In this document: piece after piece, positions 2,537 through 60,167 of the stretch | Layout of the letters: each line of letters starts with the position of its first letter | Numbering within the stretch: the stretch's first letter is position 1 | Source of the DNA: an uncultured Candidatus Saccharibacteria bacterium | GTDB taxonomy: Bacteria > Patescibacteriota > Minisyncoccia > UBA6257 | DNA: 64,000 nt | Assembly (NCBI GenBank): GCA_964618625.1 | Contig: CAZUBI010000001.1 | Coordinates: 396,901 to 460,900, forward strand | Direction of reading: 5' to 3' | The notes under the pieces: generated by a model | The model's input: the letters and a program-made list of their open reading frames with translations, nothing else | Databases searched by the model: none | What the model was told of the DNA's origin: nothing | Position numbers and translations under genes: made by a program

Positions 2537-3322
2537 TCAATTCAATTTTTTAAACACTCGAACGCTAAGAAACGTTATCACAATATTAAAAGCAAGAAGA
2601 AAAAGGAGGCATACAGGCAAAGAATGCGTAGTCATAAGTAAAATTTCTTCACTATCTAAGGACTTAGAAAGAACAACCCAACGCAGAGCATCTACACTAT
2701 AAGCCAAGGGATTATAATGCGCCATTGTTGCCATCCAAGAGGGGACATTTTTTAGAGGGAAAAAAGCCCCAGATAAAAAAGCCATTGGCGCAATAATTAT
2801 TTGGGAGAGAATGGAAAAACTTTCCATTCTTTTCAAACGGGAAGTAAAGAAAATTCCCAAAGCGGCCATTCCATAACCAATTAGAAAAATAACAAGAACA
2901 ATTTTTATAAATGAAAATATATCAACATTAATGCCCAAATAGGGCATTATGAGTAGAATAAGAACACCTTGCAAAAGGGCAGTTGTAGCTGCCCCTAAGA
3001 TTTTTCCTAAAGCAATATATGATCTACTAATGGGAGAAACCAGGATTTCTTTTAAAAATCCGAATTCTCTATCCCAGACAATAGACATAGTGGATGAAAT
3101 GGCCATAATACTAACACTTAAAGCTAATATTCCGGGAAAAAAGAATTGCACAAAATCATAATGTAAAACGGGTGTAGGAAATATTGTTTTTAATCCAGTA
3201 CCAAAAAATATTAAAATTAGAAGAGGCAAAAATATAGAAGTAAAGAATTTTAAAGAATTGCGTAAATAGATAAGCACTTCTCTATACCAGATTACATAAA
3301 GAGTTTGTAATTTTTTATTCAT
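2537..3322 (-). CDS. ABC-2 type transporter permease
   Basis: 261 aa with about six hydrophobic TM segments. Its start overlaps the stop of the upstream ATPase gene by 8 nt. Confidence 0.7.
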   Translation of the reverse strand: MNKKLQTLYVIWYREVLIYLRNSLKFFTSIFLPLLILIFFGTGLKTIFPTPVLHYDFVQFFFPGILALSVSIMAISSTMSIVWDREFGFLKEILVSPISRSYIALGKILGAATTALLQGVLILLIMPYLGINVDIFSFIKIVLVIFLIGYGMAALGIFFTSRLKRMESFSILSQIIIAPMAFLSGAFFPLKNVPSWMATMAHYNPLAYSVDALRWVVLSKSLDSEEILLMTTHSLPVCLLFLLAFNIVITFLSVRVFKKLN

Positions 3323-10061: not shown

Positions 10062-11096
10062 ATGGCTGGATTAGTACGGAATAATAAATATTGTCAGTTG
10101 GAAAAAAGAGTTATTTTTCATATTGGCGGACAATATCGATTTTTATTAAAAGCGAAAAAGAATCTAAAATTATCTTGGTTTTTGTTCGCACATGAAATCA
10201 GAGTAAATCAAAGAACACTTAATGATTGGAAAAGAGAGAAATATTCTTTGCCTTACGATATTTTTCAAAAAATTTCTAAGATTACAAAATCGAAAATACC
10301 ACATGGAATAAAGATTAAAGAACCTTTTTGGTATGTTCGTAAAGGAGCTAAGCTTGGTGGTATTGCTGTTTATAAAAAATATGGAAAAATTGGTGGCGAC
10401 CCAGAGATACGAAAACAGAAATGGTTAGAGTGGTGGGAAAGAGAAGGTAAATATAATCCAAAAGAATATTTTGTAACAAAGGAAATTATTGCACCACAAA
10501 AAGGAGTTGATTTATCTGAATTTGTTGGAATTATGATTGGAGATGGCGGGATTACTAATAAACAAGTTGTTGTAACCCTTAATAATAAAACAGATAAACT
10601 TTATAGCGTTTTTGTAGAAGATCTTATAAATAGACTTTTTGGGGTAAAAGCAAGTATGAATATTAGAAAAGAAGAATCTGTTGTTAATATTACTGTTTCA
10701 CGCATACGCTTAGTAGCTTTTTGCAAATCGATAGGTCTTAAGATTGGAAATAAGTTAAAACAAAATTTGGATATTCCTGCATGGGTTAAAAAAGATAAAA
10801 GTTTTAAAGTATCTTGTTTAAGGGGTTTAGTAGATACAGATGGTTGTTTTTTTGTTGAGCGTCATAAAATTAATAAGAAAAAATACTGTTATCCTAGATT
10901 GTCTTTCGTAAGTTATTCTAAACAACTCCGTGCTTCAGCTTTTAAGATATTAAAAGAATTAGAATTTTCGCCTAACATTCGTAGTAATAGAAGCGTGCAA
11001 TTAGAAAATATAGCAGACATTAAAAAATATTTTAATTTAGTAGGTACTCATAATCCAAAACATAAAGAGAGATTTAGATTATTTTTGGAGGGGTAG
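10062..11096 (+). CDS. HTH (Xre-like) + double-motif LAGLIDADG homing-endonuclease-like protein
   Basis: 344 aa; LAGLIDADG-type motifs FVGIMIGDGGI and LRGLVDTDGCF with acidic residues retained; N-terminal HTH-like segment LSWFLFAHEIRVNQRTLNDWKREK. The 3' end overlaps the first 10 nt of tRNA-Ser(TGA). Confidence 0.7.
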   Translation: MAGLVRNNKYCQLEKRVIFHIGGQYRFLLKAKKNLKLSWFLFAHEIRVNQRTLNDWKREKYSLPYDIFQKISKITKSKIPHGIKIKEPFWYVRKGAKLGGIAVYKKYGKIGGDPEIRKQKWLEWWEREGKYNPKEYFVTKEIIAPQKGVDLSEFVGIMIGDGGITNKQVVVTLNNKTDKLYSVFVEDLINRLFGVKASMNIRKEESVVNITVSRIRLVAFCKSIGLKIGNKLKQNLDIPAWVKKDKSFKVSCLRGLVDTDGCFFVERHKINKKKYCYPRLSFVSYSKQLRASAFKILKELEFSPNIRSNRSVQLENIADIKKYFNLVGTHNPKHKERFRLFLEG

Positions 11097-11175
11097 GGAG
11101 TGGTTATCCCAAGCGGTTTTGAAAACCGCTATTCGTTTACACGGATCGTGGGTTCGAATCCCACCCCCTCCGCCA
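11087..11175 (+). tRNA. tRNA-Ser(UGA), long variable arm, CCA encoded
   Basis: GGAGGGGTAGGGAGTGGTTATCCCAAGCGGTTTTGAAAACCGCT...CGTGGGTTCGAATCCCACCCCCTCCGCCA. The ORF-track protein at 11100 reads through this tRNA as a false N-terminus. Confidence 0.85.
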
Positions 11176-14523: not shown

Positions 14524-14613
14524 GGAGGAGTGCGCCGAATGGTAAGGCAGCAGATTGCTAATCTGTGACGGTGTAAAAGCCGTTTGCGGGTTCGACTCCC
14601 GCCTCCTCCGCCA
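14524..14613 (+). tRNA. tRNA-Ser(GCU), long variable arm, CCA encoded
   Basis: GGAGGAGTGCGCCGAATGGTAAGGCAGCAGATTGCTAATCTGTGACGG...GCGGGTTCGACTCCCGCCTCCTCCGCCA. Confidence 0.85.
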
Positions 14614-14664: not shown

Positions 14665-14691
14665 GAGTGGTTCGAATTCAAGTCCCCCAGC
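14665..14691 (+). repeat. Post-tRNA-Ser T-loop-like motif GAGTGGTTCGAATTCAAGTCCCCCAGC, copy 1 of 2
   Basis: 23/27 identical to 56276..56304, which follows tRNA-Ser(CGA). Contains a GGTTCGAAT T-loop-like core and a terminal CCCCAGC. Confidence 0.5.
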
Positions 14692-14757
14692 CGTCTAGTT
14701 TTTATCAAGAGACCGAGAAAATCGTATATTAAACACTTTTTCGAGTTTAGTTTGCTT

Positions 14758-14773
14758 CCTGCCTCCTCTGCCA
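14758..14773 (+). other. Degenerate duplicate of the tRNA-Ser 3' end (CCTGCCTCCTCTGCCA)
   Basis: 14/16 identical to the 3' terminus of tRNA-Ser(GCU) (CCCGCCTCCTCCGCCA at 14598-14613); lies 145 nt downstream of that tRNA. Confidence 0.4.
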
Positions 14774-56175: not shown

Positions 56176-56264
56176 GGAGGAGTACCGAAGTGGTCATAAC
56201 GGAGCCGTTTCGAAAACGGTTAGTCCTTTTTTAGGACACGTGGGTTCGAATCCCACCTCCTCCG
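56176..56264 (+). tRNA. tRNA-Ser(CGA), long variable arm
   Basis: GGAGGAGTACCGAAGTGGTCATAACGGAGCCGTTTCGAAAACGGTTAGTCCTTTTTTAGGACACGTGGGTTCGAATCCCACCTCCTCCG. Anticodon loop TTCGAAA. Confidence 0.8.
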
Positions 56265-56275
56265 CATTTGAAGAT

Positions 56276-56304
56276 CCGAGTGGTTCGAATCCTAGTTCCC
56301 CAGC
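56276..56304 (+). repeat. Post-tRNA-Ser T-loop-like motif GAGTGGTTCGAATCCTAGTTCCCCAGC, copy 2 of 2
   Basis: Related to 14665..14691 and to the 31-bp R1 repeat (GGTTCCAACATCGTTCCATAGCCCCAGC). Begins 12 nt after tRNA-Ser(CGA). Confidence 0.5.
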
Positions 56305-56342
56305 AAATTAGAATAGCCAAAGAGGCGATTTTTTGGTAGAAT
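56298..56342 (+). promoter_or_regulatory. Terminator + extended -10 promoter module (R2), copy 1
   Basis: CCCCAGCAAATTAGAATAGCCAAAGAGGCGATTTTTTGGTAGAAT: imperfect hairpin, T6 run, then TGgTAGAAT extended -10, ~35 nt upstream of the 56380 ATG. 39/45 identical to copy 2 at 58374..58417. Confidence 0.5.
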
Positions 56343-56379
56343 ATCTAAAATATTTAAAAATATTAATTAATAAAAAAAT

Positions 56380-56850
56380 ATGGAAGAATTTAATAAAATT
56401 AATTATTCTCCAGAAAATTCCAGAGATGGAAATCCTCCTGTTGATAAAGATAAAATTGAACAGTTAGAAAAAGATAGAGAAGAGGAAATTAATAAAATAA
56501 TTGCTGATTTTTTGATTTCGCCAAGGAAATTTATCGAAAAGCCTAATAATGAAAATAAATTAGATAAAAAAGTAGCTATTAAACTTATTGAAGAGTATAG
56601 GGCATCTGCGCTTTTAAACTATATTGATAAATTTCAAGGCTTAGATAAAGAAGTAGCTCTTAATCTTATTGAAAGCGGTTGTGCATCTGCTATTCTTAAA
56701 AATTTTAATAAATTTCAAGGCTTAGATAAAGAAGTAGCTCTTAATCTTATTGAAAGTGGTGATGCAGATGCTGTTCTTGATAATATTGATAAATTCCAAG
56801 GACTAGATAAAGAATCAACTCTTAAGATGATTGAAGAAAGCGATAGCTAG
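56380..56850 (+). CDS. Hypothetical acidic protein with 3.5 tandem ~27-aa repeats (IDKFQGLDKEVALNLIESG...)
   Basis: 156 aa; DNA-level near-identical 51-nt repeats at 56629-56679 and 56710-56760 (period 81 nt), indicating recent internal duplication. Confidence 0.4.
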   Translation: MEEFNKINYSPENSRDGNPPVDKDKIEQLEKDREEEINKIIADFLISPRKFIEKPNNENKLDKKVAIKLIEEYRASALLNYIDKFQGLDKEVALNLIESGCASAILKNFNKFQGLDKEVALNLIESGDADAVLDNIDKFQGLDKESTLKMIEESDS

Positions 56851-56890
56851 TATAGCTAGTAATGAAGTGGAGTAAAGCTACATAGTTGCT

Positions 56891-56921
56891 AAAAAGGTTC
56901 CAACATCGTTCCATAGCCCCA
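56891..56921 (+). repeat. 31-bp perfect direct repeat R1 (AAAAAGGTTCCAACATCGTTCCATAGCCCCA), copy 1 of 3
   Basis: Identical 31-mer at 58347..58377 and 59381..59411. Lies 41 nt after the stop of 56380..56850. Confidence 0.7.
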
Positions 56922-57052
56922 CGGATTTCGAAAATAAACAGTAAAATATATAAGCCAATTCTATAATAATAATTTTTAAGCTTTTATGTTAGAGTTAAAA
57001 TATTAGAAAGGTCGATTCCAAGTAGTAAATAAAATAATAAAAAAAACAAATT

Positions 57053-57886
57053 ATGTCAGAAGAATATACAAAAAGTGAAAGTAATTCTGTAGTTAAAATT
57101 ATTAAAGATGTAGTAATTGCTTTAATCGCAGTAATCTTAGTATTCGGTACTTTCGGAATGGTGGGAGCTGGACACAGAGGAGTTATGCTTAACTTCGGTG
57201 CAGTTCAAGATAAAGTTTTAGGTGAAGGATTCTATATTAAGATTCCTATCGCTCAGAAAGTAGTTAAGATAGATGTTAGAACAGTTAAAATGGAAGTTCA
57301 GGCACTCTCTTATTCAAGAGATATTCAGATAGTAGATAGCACAATAGCATTGAATTATCATCTATCTCCTAAGGCAGTTAATAAGCTTTATCAGGAAATA
57401 GGTTTGGACTTTGAGTCAAGAATTATAAGTCCAGCAATTCAAGAATCTGTTAAGGCAACAATAGCTAATTATACAGCCCAGGAATTAGTTGAAAAAAGAG
57501 GAGAAGTTAAGGATGGTATTAAAGTATTCTTAACAGAAAGATTATTAAGACAAGATATAATCGTTGATGAATTATCAATAGTTAACTTCGATTTCTCTGA
57601 TACATACGAAGCAGCTATCGAAGCTAAACAGGTAGCACAACAAGAAGTTCTAACAGCTAAGAACAAATTAGAACGAGTTAAATTTGAAGCAGAACAAAGA
57701 ATTGCTCAAGCTAAAGGTGAGGCAGAAGCTATTAAGATTCAAGTTGAAGCTATTACTCAGCAAGGTGGAAAAGATTATGTAAATCTTAAATGGGTTGAAG
57801 CTTGGGGTAGTGGCCTTGCACCAGTCCCTCAAACATTAATTGGAGAGGGAAGTGGAAGCTTTTTATTCAATTTGAATAGTAAATAG
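57053..57886 (+). CDS. SPFH/band-7 (prohibitin/HflK-like) membrane protein
   Basis: 277 aa; N-terminal TM IALIAVILVFGTFGMVGA; SPFH core; C-terminal coiled coil (QQEVLTAKNKLERVKFEAEQRIAQAKGEAEAI). Confidence 0.75.
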   Translation: MSEEYTKSESNSVVKIIKDVVIALIAVILVFGTFGMVGAGHRGVMLNFGAVQDKVLGEGFYIKIPIAQKVVKIDVRTVKMEVQALSYSRDIQIVDSTIALNYHLSPKAVNKLYQEIGLDFESRIISPAIQESVKATIANYTAQELVEKRGEVKDGIKVFLTERLLRQDIIVDELSIVNFDFSDTYEAAIEAKQVAQQEVLTAKNKLERVKFEAEQRIAQAKGEAEAIKIQVEAITQQGGKDYVNLKWVEAWGSGLAPVPQTLIGEGSGSFLFNLNSK

Positions 57887-57979
57887 TATAGGTGATTAAG
57901 TCCCACCGTTTTAAATATTTAAATGGTCGATAGTTTAATTAAATTAATGCTATGAAAAATCAATTTTAATTATAAAAAT

Positions 57980-58276
57980 ATGTTAAAATTCAAAAACGCA
58001 AAAAAATTTAATAGGACTAGTATAAAAAAGTTACCAGAAGAAAAACCAATTATTTATAAACTTTTAAATAATACTAGAAAAGAATTGTATGTTGGCGTGG
58101 CAAAAAGGAATAGAGTTCAAGAGCGTTTATTGGAGCATTTAACCTTGAAGGAAGAAAAGATTCCAGGTGTGGTAAAAGTTAAATTTGTACAGTTCTCAAG
58201 TATAGAGAAAGCAAAAAAGGCAGAAAAGCAATTAATAAAAAAGATACAACCAAAATTCAACGAACAAAATAAATAG
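57980..58276 (+). CDS. Small GIY-YIG nuclease-superfamily protein
   Basis: 98 aa; IYKLLN...ELYVGVAKRNRVQERLLEHL matches GIY...YVG...R..ERL..H catalytic core. Confidence 0.6.
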   Translation: MLKFKNAKKFNRTSIKKLPEEKPIIYKLLNNTRKELYVGVAKRNRVQERLLEHLTLKEEKIPGVVKVKFVQFSSIEKAKKAEKQLIKKIQPKFNEQNK

Positions 58277-58346
58277 TTAGAAACTTAGGAGGGTATAATT
58301 AAGCTAAAAAACGCTTCATATCTAGCATCATACGTTTTTTAAAGCC

Positions 58347-58377
58347 AAAAAGGTTCCAACATCGTTCCATAGCCCCA
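58347..58377 (+). repeat. R1 31-bp direct repeat, copy 2 of 3 (fused to R2 copy 2)
   Basis: Perfect match to 56891..56921. The same CCCCAGC runs straight into the R2 module. Confidence 0.7.
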
Positions 58378-58417
58378 GCAAATTAGAATCGCCAAAAAGG
58401 CGATTTTTTGGTAGAAT
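58374..58417 (+). promoter_or_regulatory. Terminator + extended -10 promoter module (R2), copy 2
   Basis: CCCCAGCAAATTAGAATCGCCAAAAAGGCGATTTTTTGGTAGAAT: perfect 6-bp hairpin ATCGCC/GGCGAT, T6 run, then TGgTAGAAT, 10 nt upstream of the 58427 ATG. Confidence 0.55.
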
Positions 58418-58426
58418 TATTAAAAG

Positions 58427-59341
58427 ATGAAATTAGAAAAAGTTTTAGAAAAATTAAAAGAGCTTTTCGGTAAATGGGGTCTTGAGCAGAAAGATTGGAT
58501 TTTGGTTGCTAACTATGCTGTTAAACTACAAGGCTATGACGTAAGATTAAGAAAAGGCCATTTTAATACCATAGTTGATAAGAAAAAACTTCCTTGGAAC
58601 GTGAAGGAAGGTTTTGAAATTTTTCCACCGAAAAATTCAATATGGTCCAAGGATTATATTGAATGGATGAAATTAACTGGTTTTGAAACTGACCTGATAG
58701 CTTATGATAGCAGGAAGATTAAAAAGTATTTAAAATATAGTATCACTTATAAGCTTCCAAACAAGGGATCTATTTATTTAATAACAATGGAAGGTAATTT
58801 AATCAGCCTTAATGATTTTTTGGTTCATTGTCGAGAAGAAGAAGCAGGCATTGCTAAAGGTATGTACTTATTAGATGTTATTAAAAATTTACAAAAAGCA
58901 TCTAGAGAAAAAAAAGATGAAAAATCAATTCTTCTATCTGATAAAATATTGAAAAAGTATCAATTTTTAAATAAGAAAAAACCCCGGGAAGAAAAAATAA
59001 TATTTAAAGGAAGTATAAAAGGAGATGGAGTTTGCAGTGGAAAGGTTGTAGGTAGAGCAAAATTAATTAAAGGTAAAGGTAATAAATATATGGATATTAA
59101 GGGAAAGGTAATTTTAGTAGCTAAAATGACCTCTCCTGATTTTGTTATTATTATTAATAAAATTAAAGGCATGATTACTGATGAAGGTGGTAAATTATGC
59201 CACGCGGCAATTTTAGCAAGAGAATTTGAAATTCCTTGTATAATTGGGACGAAAGTAGCTACCAAAGTTATAAATAATGGTGATCTTATAGAATTGGATG
59301 CTGATTTTGGGATAGTAAGAATATTAGAAAGAAAGAAGTAA
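58427..59341 (+). CDS. Protein with C-terminal PEP-utilising-enzyme mobile (phosphohistidine swivel) domain and an N-terminal domain of unknown function
   Basis: 304 aa; GGKLCHAAILAREFEIPCIIGT matches the PEP-utiliser phosphohistidine signature. The N-terminal 180 aa have no motif I recognise. Confidence 0.55.
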   Translation: MKLEKVLEKLKELFGKWGLEQKDWILVANYAVKLQGYDVRLRKGHFNTIVDKKKLPWNVKEGFEIFPPKNSIWSKDYIEWMKLTGFETDLIAYDSRKIKKYLKYSITYKLPNKGSIYLITMEGNLISLNDFLVHCREEEAGIAKGMYLLDVIKNLQKASREKKDEKSILLSDKILKKYQFLNKKKPREEKIIFKGSIKGDGVCSGKVVGRAKLIKGKGNKYMDIKGKVILVAKMTSPDFVIIINKIKGMITDEGGKLCHAAILAREFEIPCIIGTKVATKVINNGDLIELDADFGIVRILERKK

Positions 59342-59380
59342 GTTACAGAAAAAATCTAATATTATTTAATTCCTAAGGTC

Positions 59381-59411
59381 AAAAAGGTTCCAACATCGTT
59401 CCATAGCCCCA
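59381..59411 (+). repeat. R1 31-bp direct repeat, copy 3 of 3
   Basis: Perfect match. It lies between the convergent 3' ends of 58427..59341(+) and comF(-). Confidence 0.7.
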
Positions 59412-59420
59412 GCCAAATAT

Positions 59421-60167
59421 TTATCCTCTAGCTAATACCAAACCGATGATTTTCTTCGCCCCTGATTTTTTTAATATACGAGCCGCTTCTTGCATTGTTG
59501 CTCCGGAGGTATAAACATCGTCAATTAAAATTATCCACTTATTTTTAATTAGATTTAAGCTAGAAATAGGAATTTGAAAAACATCTTTGGTATTTTTTTC
59601 TCTTTCAATAAAATTATTGATTTTTGCTTGAGGTGGATTATTTTTAATCCTAAGAAGAATTTTAGAATGAAAGTTTAGAGAAAAATGAGAAGCAATAACT
59701 TCTGTTAATAATTCTGATTGATTAAATCCTCTTTGCCTCTTTTTTCTTTTATGAAGTGGAATTGGAATTAGTAATATATTCTTTTTATTAATTTCAGAAA
59801 AAAAGTTGGTTTCTTTTAAAAATCTTATTATTAAACTAGCCAAAGGTTTTTGTAATGAAATAATTGGTTGATATTTAAAAAGATGAATAGTTTTTCTAAT
59901 AATTGAATTTTCATAAAAAGAAACTACGCCCAAAGCGAATAAATTGGTTTTACAAAAACAACAACGTTTTGAAAAATTAATTACTCTTTTTTTACAAACA
60001 GGACAAATAAAGGAATAATTAATTGGGATATTTTTTTGGCATTTTTTACAAAGCGGATAAGAAAGATGAACTTCTCTTTTGCAAGAAACGCATTGCCAAG
60101 GGAAAAAAGTGTCTAAAAATAATTTTAAAAAACGGCGGGGCATAGATATTATGTTTGCATTTGGCAA
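59421..60167 (-). CDS. comF: ComF-family phosphoribosyltransferase-domain protein (competence protein F-like)
   Basis: 248 aa; N-terminal double Cys-pair zinc finger (CVSCK...CKKC, CPVC...C); PRT motif IILIDDVYTSGATMQEA. Confidence 0.7.
   Translation of the reverse strand: MPNANIISMPRRFLKLFLDTFFPWQCVSCKREVHLSYPLCKKCQKNIPINYSFICPVCKKRVINFSKRCCFCKTNLFALGVVSFYENSIIRKTIHLFKYQPIISLQKPLASLIIRFLKETNFFSEINKKNILLIPIPLHKRKKRQRGFNQSELLTEVIASHFSLNFHSKILLRIKNNPPQAKINNFIEREKNTKDVFQIPISSLNLIKNKWIILIDDVYTSGATMQEAARILKKSGAKKIIGLVLARG

Follow-up and report, generated by a model that had tools for sequence, protein, structure and literature searches.

The stretch of DNA analysed here, referred to as the window, is a 64-kb segment of contig CAZUBI010000001.1 from an uncultured Candidatus Saccharibacteria bacterium. 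Behind its tRNA-Ser(cga) gene lie 3.1 kb in which genes for a tandem-repeat protein, an SPFH/Band_7 protein, a GIY-YIG nuclease and a protein with a phosphoenolpyruvate (PEP)-utilizers swivel domain are delimited by three copies of a repeat, R1 (AAAAAGGTTCCAACATCGTTCCATAGCCCCA), before the convergent comF gene is reached (Table 1). This stretch is probably an array of three small mobile gene cassettes docked behind the tRNA gene, each of which ends in R1, where the first follows a short tRNA-like sequence called the L-site.

Organization of the array in the window

The three R1 copies were found to be identical at 31 of 31 positions and all of them lie on the + strand within 2.5 kb, where the chance expectation is 0. 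No further copy was observed in the 64-kb window with up to three mismatches allowed. A 45-nt module, R2, occurs only twice in the window (56298-56342 and 58373-58417) in copies which differ at two positions, again with a chance expectation of 0. The original prediction, made from the letters of the sequence without database searches, had listed the same repeats and the same gene content, and both were confirmed. Its positions for the first two R1 copies were correct while the third copy starts at 59381 and not at 58381, and the tail CCCCAGC which it assigned to R1 is present in copies 2 and 3 but copy 1 continues as CCCCACG.

Both R2 copies were called as sigma-70-like promoters with TCGCCA or TAGCCA as the -35 element, a 17-nt spacer and TAGAAT preceded by an upstream TG. 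The R2 stem comprises only 3-4 bp and the terminator scan made no call at either copy; R2 was earlier read as a terminator with an extended -10 element and appears not to be a terminator but the promoter-bearing 5' end of a cassette.

The repeat-protein gene of cassette 1 contains three tandem repeats of 81 nt. For the product of the cassette 3 gene, matches to solved structures are confined to residues ~180-300 and are to the phosphohistidine swivel domain of PEP synthase/rifampicin-phosphotransferase-type enzymes and of enzyme I of the phosphotransferase system, and this C-terminal domain is the PEP-utilizers swivel domain. The N-terminal ~180 residues have no sequence-detectable relative in PDB or Pfam. 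PADLOC returned no defence-system matches for the four cargo proteins of the window and the suggestion that these form a defence island was therefore not upheld for the window itself, although defence-type genes do occur in other cassettes of the family, as described below.

Two Logan unitigs correspond to the exact spans of single cassettes, where the 1481-nt unitig L153 covers cassette 2 and the 1021-nt unitig L001 covers cassette 3 (L followed by a number denotes a sequence or locus other than the window). We noticed that assemblies built with k=31 break exactly at R1 and leave each cassette as its own contig, and the R1 repeats thus degrade the reconstruction of metagenome-assembled genomes (MAGs).

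Table 1. Features of the two tRNA-Ser docking loci of the window, in window coordinates
Feature	Position	Strand	Remarks
tRNA-Ser(gct)	14524..14613	+	anchor of the second docking locus
second L-site, GGTTCGAATTCAAGTCCCCCAGC	14669..14691	+	empty; native distal flank directly next
R3 module (CGTCTAGTTTTTATCAAGAGACCGAG...) and decayed tRNA-Ser remnant (14740-14773)	14692..14773	+	flank found after the last R1 in filled arrays
tRNA-Ser(cga)	56176..56265	+	conserved upstream anchor; ARAGORN, Rfam tRNA 54.6 bits
L-site, GGTTCGAATCCTAGTTCCCCAGC	56282..56304	+	T-loop-like; putative attI/attB-like docking site; last bases CCCCAGC
cassette 1	56305..56921	+	R2 56305-56342; repeat-protein gene 56380-56850; R1 copy 1 56891-56921
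cassette 2	56922..58379	+	SPFH/Band_7 57053-57886; GIY-YIG 57980-58276; R1 copy 2 58347-58377 + GC
cassette 3	58380..59413	+	R2 58380-58417; PEP-utilizers swivel-domain gene 58427-59341; R1 copy 3 59381-59411 + GC
comF	59421..60167	-	convergent; conserved distal flank of the array

Conservation of R1 and anatomy of the cassettes

Genomes, one for each species, and metagenomes were scanned with a degenerate R1 pattern. The metagenome scan gave at least 118 loci, and the locus figures given from here on refer to the matches listed. A profile built from the scan sites was then run with nhmmer, and at least 351 R1-type sites were collected in at least 131 low-GC loci of CPR-like character, where the sites are co-oriented within each locus and number at most 11. 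Among the genomes, R1 was observed to be nearly base-perfect in low-GC contigs (0.28-0.37) of ~10 MAGs, often with several copies per contig, and other matches were chance hits in high-GC genomes. These MAGs are labelled Saccharibacteria, Nealsonbacteria or simply 'bacterium', a few short contigs being evidently mis-binned, and the hosts of the arrays are probably members of the candidate phyla radiation (CPR), to which the loci point by their character. Short R1 contigs were also seen in bins labelled Methanosarcinales and Gammaproteobacteria, which looks like mis-binning. A recent duplication, as proposed earlier for the repeats of the window, does not agree with an R1 that is almost base-perfect in at least ten species-level genomes and at least 118 metagenome contigs. 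Likewise, R1 is not a genome-wide intergenic motif as its copies are confined to arrays.

Most R1 copies are base-perfect from position -6 to +25 and the conserved block extends from -6 to ~+27. The block reads AAAAAG-GTTCCAACATC-GTTCCATAG-CCCCAG(C), in which GTTCCA occurs twice with a period of 11 bp; upstream of the block, a T-run and an R-R-Y-Y tetranucleotide are found. About one third of the sites are variants with one to three mismatches, often in the C-run, and in ~20% of the sites a degenerate R1-like unit (R1') directly abuts R1 on its upstream side. In L004 (oriented, ~3113-3160) the R1 tail is tandemly duplicated (...CCATAGCCCCAGCTATAGCCCCAGCAAATTA), a duplication that may have been left behind when DNA was broken and rejoined at the core. 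A core variant without the A-run, ATCCAT-GTTCCAACATCGTTCCAT[C/T]GCCCCAG, occurs twice in L009 (2009-2033 and 2772-2796; GC 0.41), a contig that also carries a homologue of a cassette gene from L005, and the cassette system may thus extend to other lineages with variant sites.

Several other identities were considered for R1 and rejected. In the window and in L013, the minus strand of R1 continues the comF frame past its stop codon and would encode WGYGTMLEPF-stop. This coding reading was discarded as a coincidence because R1 occurs in more than 300 contexts without comF, the comF of L004 has no R1 and base-perfect conservation is not coding-like. Rfam matched only tRNA at E<=1. R1 was not upheld as a structured RNA or single-stranded DNA element either: folding of the three R1 regions of the window as single-stranded DNA, on both strands, gave z-scores between -1.9 and +1.2 and no R1 hairpin, the only stem being a terminator-like hairpin upstream of copy 2. 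R1 is not a DNA-uptake sequence, with only three copies in 64 kb, in one array and on one strand. It is not a phage- or plasmid-borne att site, as no match was found in the viral, phage and plasmid collections IMG/VR, INPHARED and PLSDB. It is not a CRISPR repeat, the intervals being coding and 73-4049 bp long, nor a repetitive extragenic palindrome or miniature inverted-repeat element, as it lacks an inverted repeat and occurs in arrays only, not dispersed.

The 220 R1-bounded intervals among the matches listed have a median length of 830 bp with a spacing of 73-4049 bp, and 154 of them (70%) contain exactly one open reading frame (ORF). The ORFs are strongly co-oriented with R1 (285 on its strand and 11 on the other), and the 1,045 ORFs of the R1 loci fall into 545 clusters. 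A cassette begins directly after CCCCAG(C) with one of a few promoter-like modules placed at a fixed distance (R2, R4 and other types) and ends with a T-run followed by R1. R2 and R4 are predicted promoters by their match to the consensus. R2 contains the -35 element TCGCCA, a palindrome AATCGCC-N5-GGCGATT and the extended -10 element TGGTAGAAT. In R4, TTGACt and TATATT are separated by 17 nt, and behind them come the perfect palindrome ATATCCTAATATAGGATAT and a T-run, which suggests that this promoter with its terminator-like hairpin could produce a small RNA or act as an attenuator. R4 was observed directly after L or R1 in many loci, for example in L021, L063, L110 and L039.

The cargo with Pfam matches includes enzymes such as peptide deformylase, cytidine/dCMP deaminase, PNPOx-like proteins, FAD oxidoreductase, HD, NUDIX, HAD and DUF218 proteins and a trypsin-like peptidase. 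Defence-type families are found in some cassettes, namely GmrSD with HNH, AAA_21/AAA_15, an NgoFVII-like restriction enzyme, RelA/SpoT and SIR2_2. By eye, one unrelated ORF in the R1 loci looks IS481-like.

tRNA anchoring and an empty L-site

Where the array head is included in a locus, it was found to follow a tRNA gene on the same strand, with tRNA-Ser(gct) in 15 cases, tRNA-Ser(cga) in 13, tRNA-Ser(gga) in five and tRNA-Gln(ttg) in six, and no R1 was seen upstream of the anchoring tRNA (both among the matches listed). Upstream of the platform lies deoC, a LAGLIDADG gene or a tRNA gene, and the ORFs near the tRNA-Gln loci were judged by eye to be housekeeping genes. Between tRNA-Ser and the first cassette lies the L-site with the consensus GGTTCGAATCCA[C/A]GTCCCCCAG(C). 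It differs at only 1-2 nt from the segment of tRNA-Gln(ttg) between the T-loop and the discriminator and is not the adjacent tRNA-Ser end, while at the tRNA-Gln loci the 3' end of the tRNA itself serves as L. From its sequence, we take the L-site to be a pseudo-copy of the tRNA-Gln 3' end with the same core as R1. Both have only the seven contiguous nucleotides CCCCAGC in common. The motif behind the tRNA had previously been regarded as a relative of R1, and this holds in that both serve as interchangeable left junctions; the motif is, however, a copy of the tRNA-Gln 3' end and not of the neighbouring tRNA-Ser. A variant L-site was also observed at the head of a small array downstream of rpsJ in L029.

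The window contains a second docking locus, behind tRNA-Ser(gct), and its L-site is empty. The order at this locus is L, R3, a remnant of a tRNA-Ser 3' end, a terminator and rpsO. At the homologous locus elsewhere, between one and at least seven R1-bounded cassettes lie between L and R3, where R3 follows the last R1 exactly after CCCCA. As an example, L071, which is 96.6% identical to the window at the nucleotide level, has one cassette between L and R1. In L123, whose contig does not include the L side and whose distal flank is 99.3% identical, R1 and 855 nt foreign to the window lie directly upstream of R3.

The remnant at 14740-14773 corresponds to a decayed T-loop-to-3' end of tRNA-Ser (ttcgagtttagtttgcttcctgcctcctctgcca), and the same remnant was seen after R3 in L074, L042, L135, L136 and others. 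Because this remnant lies downstream of L and R3, the L-R3 platform looks like an old insertion into tRNA-Ser(gct) that is bounded by direct repeats of tRNA-Ser type. We also noticed that R3 (CGTCTAGTTTTTTTATCGAGGGACCGAGACAC; window 14692-14724) directly follows a genuine tRNA-Gln in L091 and, in a looser form, in L082. Therefore, the L+R3 unit behind tRNA-Ser seems to resemble a copied tRNA-Gln 3' end together with its native downstream flank.

A further tRNA-Ser gene of the window, tRNA-Ser(tga) at 11087-11175, is overlapped by an ORF with HTH and LAGLIDADG_3 domains (10062-11096, +) which ends 10 nt inside it. Homologues of the LAGLIDADG protein (37-100% identical) are encoded directly 5' of tRNA-Ser(gct) or tRNA-Ser(cga) in 13 other loci, where the 5' end of the tRNA encodes the last codons. 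To judge from this arrangement, the ORF looks like a free-standing homing-endonuclease gene which targets tRNA-Ser genes.

Evidence that the cassettes move

The order pfkB-deoC-tRNA-Ser(cga)-L ... comF-pilMNO is kept at 82-90% nucleotide identity between the window and L013, L143, L141, L115 and L004. The alignment to these relatives stops where the L-site ends (56304/56305) or within R2 and starts again at 59378-59381, where R1 copy 3 begins; for L141 and L115, synteny ends exactly at 56304/56305. In the interval from L to the last R1, matches are limited to R1 and R2, and the cassette genes were found to differ entirely in the window, L013, L143, L141 and L115. The relatives thus do not show the same gene order without repeats, and the idea that unrelated genes form cassettes bounded by an att-like repeat whose core is reused is borne out by these comparisons.

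In addition, 77 pairs of R1 sites were observed in which one flank is 80-100% identical and the other is unrelated. The right-hand breakpoints of these mosaics fall at +26 to +28, after CCCCA, CCCCAG or CCCCAGC, and the left-hand ones lie just upstream of the A-run. For example, L136 and L049 are identical at 398 of 400 downstream positions and L074 and L122 at 400 of 400, with unrelated upstream sequences in both pairs, while L049 and L114 are identical over 115 of 115 upstream positions and unrelated downstream. The same cassette was seen to follow L(cga), L(gct), the tRNA-Gln end or R1 in different genomes, and the join is always CCCCA|G. One such cassette family stands behind L(gct) in L136 and behind an R1 in L049. 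The 5' end of cassette 1 of the window (R2 and the start of the gene, the first ~100-130 nt) is ~82% identical to L049, and its product diverges further downstream and does not cluster with the L136/L049 family.

A shared sequence of 7 nt is too short for homologous recombination of the RecA type. The exchange between L and R1 cannot be explained by ordinary homologous recombination because these two sites share only seven contiguous nucleotides, and site-specific recombination at R1 would account for it. Furthermore, rare R1 variants at core positions 8 and 11 go together with the cassette on their upstream side (discordant pairs: 0/27 against 10/72), which is a weak hint that the crossover takes place at the 3' end of R1.

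Proposed mechanism and alternative explanations

It is likely that the cassettes have no integrase of their own and are moved by a recombinase encoded elsewhere in the genome, with the crossover at CCCCAGC. Each cassette would be a self-contained unit in which a promoter module, R2 in the case of cassettes 1 and 3, stands at the 5' end, R1 at the 3' end and one or two genes between them. R1 would be the recombination site carried by the cassette, in which two GTTCCA repeats one helical turn apart, plausibly accessory binding sites, precede the core CCCCAGC, and the L-site would be the chromosomal platform with the same core. A circularised cassette, in which R1 is joined to the cassette's own 5' end, might recombine with the L-site or with a resident R1 within CCCCAGC, in such a way that new cassettes stack and residents are excised or shuffled. 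The process would then be conservative site-specific recombination through a circular intermediate. The 3' ends of tRNA genes are a classic target type of tyrosine integrases. Because the target derives from the tRNA-Gln 3' end, the enzyme acting in trans might most plausibly be a tyrosine integrase with tRNA-Gln as its ancestral target.

Several observations weigh against this mechanism. A phmmer search with XerD and lambda Int gave no match among 1,556 ORFs of at least 100 aa (974 kb; the window and all loci). Motif screens of the linked ORFs for tyrosine recombinases, including the HxLRH box, serine recombinases and HUH enzymes were negative, and Pfam detected neither a recombinase nor a transposase among 40 proteins encoded in cassettes or their flanks, which comprised representatives of the clusters and large array ORFs. 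The earlier remark that there is no integrase nearby thus stands for the window and also for the R1-bearing loci. A circular intermediate or excision junction was sought among the contigs and none was found, the sole terminal overlap being a trivial R1 overlap in a Logan unitig. R1 is no palindrome and conservation ceases to the right of its core, a layout that canonical core sites of tyrosine recombinases do not have. Moreover, many of the loci are metagenome assemblies in which mis-joins are possible at the 33-78-nt R1/R2 repeats, and part of the mosaic signal could be artefactual. The orthologous loci with both flanks and the window do not depend on repeat mis-joins and are therefore not explained as assembly artefacts. 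Finally, the 5' promoter types are few and repeated (R2, R4), and homologous exchange there could imitate some of the junctions.

That no recombinase is linked also agrees with an alternative which we consider unlikely, namely that R1 is a regulatory or termination element between accessory genes, either a direct-repeat regulator site or a C-rich Rho-loading patch, and that passive homologous shuffling or gene conversion at R1, R2 and R4 follows natural transformation. An 11-bp periodicity, as seen in GTTCCA-N5-GTTCCA, is typical of the sites of winged-helix response regulators. The end of R1 is also fixed ~12 nt upstream of the -35 element in R2 and R4 modules alike, and competence genes (comF and pilMNO) flank one locus. 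However, the last R1 of every array has no co-oriented gene downstream and abuts the stop codon of the convergent comF or R3, while the first cassette is preceded by L and not by R1. L and R1, despite the short stretch they have in common, accept the same cassettes at the same junction, and the empty L|R3 site compared with the filled ones amounts to a precise insertion bounded by CCCCAGC. The confinement of R1 to arrays, with the three copies of the 64-kb window all within 2.5 kb, is also difficult to reconcile with a regulatory role.

The one-sided conservation of the cassettes, in which the 3' end alone is conserved and the 5' ends vary, would fit non-autonomous units which transpose by a single-strand or one-ended route, as IS200/IS605, IS91 or Helitrons do, and where a HUH-type enzyme acting in trans inserts 3' of CCCCAG and R1 is the right-end signal. 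Insertion always takes place directly 3' of CCCCA(G) in a strictly uniform orientation, and tandem R1'-R1 units abut in ~20% of the sites. The R-R-Y-Y tetranucleotide (-10 to -7) could also pair with GGTT around an AAAAA loop in 77-86% of the sites, with G-T wobble and on the + strand only. This 4-bp stem, however, rests on one-sided variation only and no significant single-stranded DNA fold was found for R1 of the window, with z between 0 and +1. No linked ORF has a HUH motif, and targeting of tRNA 3' ends is more typical of integrases. We consider this explanation rather improbable.

Homing, in which the LAGLIDADG nuclease or the GIY-YIG nuclease of a cassette cuts L or R1 and double-strand-break repair copies cassettes from a donor allele, is very unlikely. 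A LAGLIDADG ORF does lie directly 5' of tRNA-Ser in 13 array loci and one is found at 10062-11096 of the window, and cassette 2 carries the GIY-YIG gene. The LAGLIDADG gene was nevertheless observed to track tRNA-Ser genes rather than arrays: the copy in the window adjoins tRNA-Ser(tga), a gene without an L-site, and the cga array of the window is not accompanied by a LAGLIDADG gene. The GIY-YIG family is a singleton cluster among the array ORFs, and the cassettes move between loci with different flanks, which is unlike homing. The three perfectly identical copies would agree with a repeat that arose in the window alone, by a recent local duplication, by chance or through mis-assembly, but this is hardly credible given a chance expectation of 0, the same 25-33-mer in more than 130 independent loci from many projects and its absence from the phage, plasmid and viral collections.

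Comparison with known systems

No published description of the R1/L cassette system was found in a full-text literature search which included the repeat sequence. In an integron, intI lies beside attI, the attC sites are imperfect inverted repeats (R''-L''...L'-R') which form a single-stranded DNA hairpin, and the cassettes are generally promoterless and expressed from the Pc promoter. The R1 arrays are similar to integrons, especially to chromosomal super-integrons such as those with the Vibrio repeats (VCRs) and to clusters of attC sites lacking an integrase (CALINs), in that co-oriented and mostly single-ORF cassettes of ~0.5-1 kb each end in a conserved repeat, a distinct platform site stands at the head of the array, and the cassettes occur in varying order and position with diverse accessory cargo. 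Unlike in integrons, intI was found neither beside the platform nor elsewhere within 5 kb of the 131 loci. R1 is a 33-nt, non-palindromic and unfolded site whereas attC is a hairpin of 57-141 nt, and the junction core is CCCCAG(C) instead of G|TTRRRY. The cassettes carry their own predicted promoters, and a genome has several platforms, all of them located behind tRNA genes. Of four integron traits that were compared, only the co-oriented and shuffled array was found here; the other three (intI, a hairpin attC with GTTRRRY and promoterless cassettes) were not.

Transposons of the IS200/IS605 or HUH type have subterminal hairpins at both ends and a Y1 or Y2 HUH transposase, whereas the units described here have no conserved left end, no HUH motif and no significant hairpin. 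Satellites that are mobilised in trans, such as the cis-mobilizable elements (CIMEs) beside integrative and conjugative elements (ICEs), the pseudo staphylococcal cassette chromosome elements (psi-SCC) of composite SCC islands at rlmH and the arrays of Xer-dependent integrative elements (IMEX) at dif, are alike in their tandem accretion, the lack of a recombinase gene and the direct repeats of the core, and their enzyme is encoded elsewhere, as it would be here. They differ in being few and large elements with known enzymes (an ICE integrase, CcrAB or XerCD) and att sites, while the R1 arrays consist of up to 11 single-gene units.

Tycheposons of Prochlorococcus are multi-kb elements with their own tyrosine or serine recombinase and replication genes, and partial copies of the tRNA that belongs to an island lie between its elements (Hackl et al., bioRxiv 10.1101/2020.12.28.424599). 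The R1 arrays resemble these islands in the streamlined hosts, the tRNA anchoring, the serial integration by which newer elements push older ones distally, the repeats between units which are similar to a tRNA 3' end, and the adaptive metabolic or defence cargo (10.1101/2020.12.28.424599). In contrast to tycheposons, the units here are ~0.8 kb long and have no integrase, and they use a dedicated 33-mer together with a pseudo-tRNA-Gln end even behind tRNA-Ser. With regard to the flanking repeats of tRNA islands, the 3' end of the tRNA itself forms the left junction at the tRNA-Gln loci and a pseudo-tRNA-Gln end does so behind tRNA-Ser. R1 has only its tail in common with this tRNA-Gln-type repeat, and a separate tRNA-Ser-type remnant bounds the gct platform. 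The integrase that tRNA islands and tycheposons carry was not found.

By analogy, the closest functional system would be the integron and the closest analogue in the literature the tycheposon. The R1 arrays are best regarded as integron-like cassette arrays anchored at tRNA genes, and there is a substantial chance that they form an independent system with an enzyme of its own. We tentatively propose a wider reading, a serious possibility though not the better bet, in which the R1/L arrays are a self-standing gene-capture system of CPR/Patescibacteria and an independently evolved functional analogue of integrons. Such a system might combine cassettes that carry promoters, several platforms in each genome that are linked to tRNA genes, and an att site which is short and double-stranded and descends from the 3' end of tRNA-Gln. 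It might also depend on a dedicated and unlinked recombinase, possibly of a non-canonical class, and could supply reduced genomes with exchangeable metabolic and defence genes.

The genomes of CPR/Patescibacteria are very small, and little is understood of the ways in which these bacteria gain and exchange accessory functions. The conserved, sequence-defined cassette system described here occurs at multiple loci and in multiple species with hundreds of single-gene cassettes, whose products include deformylase, deaminase, NUDIX, HAD, protease, restriction and other defence-type proteins. If the cassettes do move by site-specific recombination, the 33-nt repeat could serve as a marker for mining the mobile gene pool of uncultured CPR bacteria, and it would point to a recombinase with a short, defined and double-stranded target that could be used as a tool. 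The R1 arrays would then represent a second, independent solution to the problem that integrons solve.

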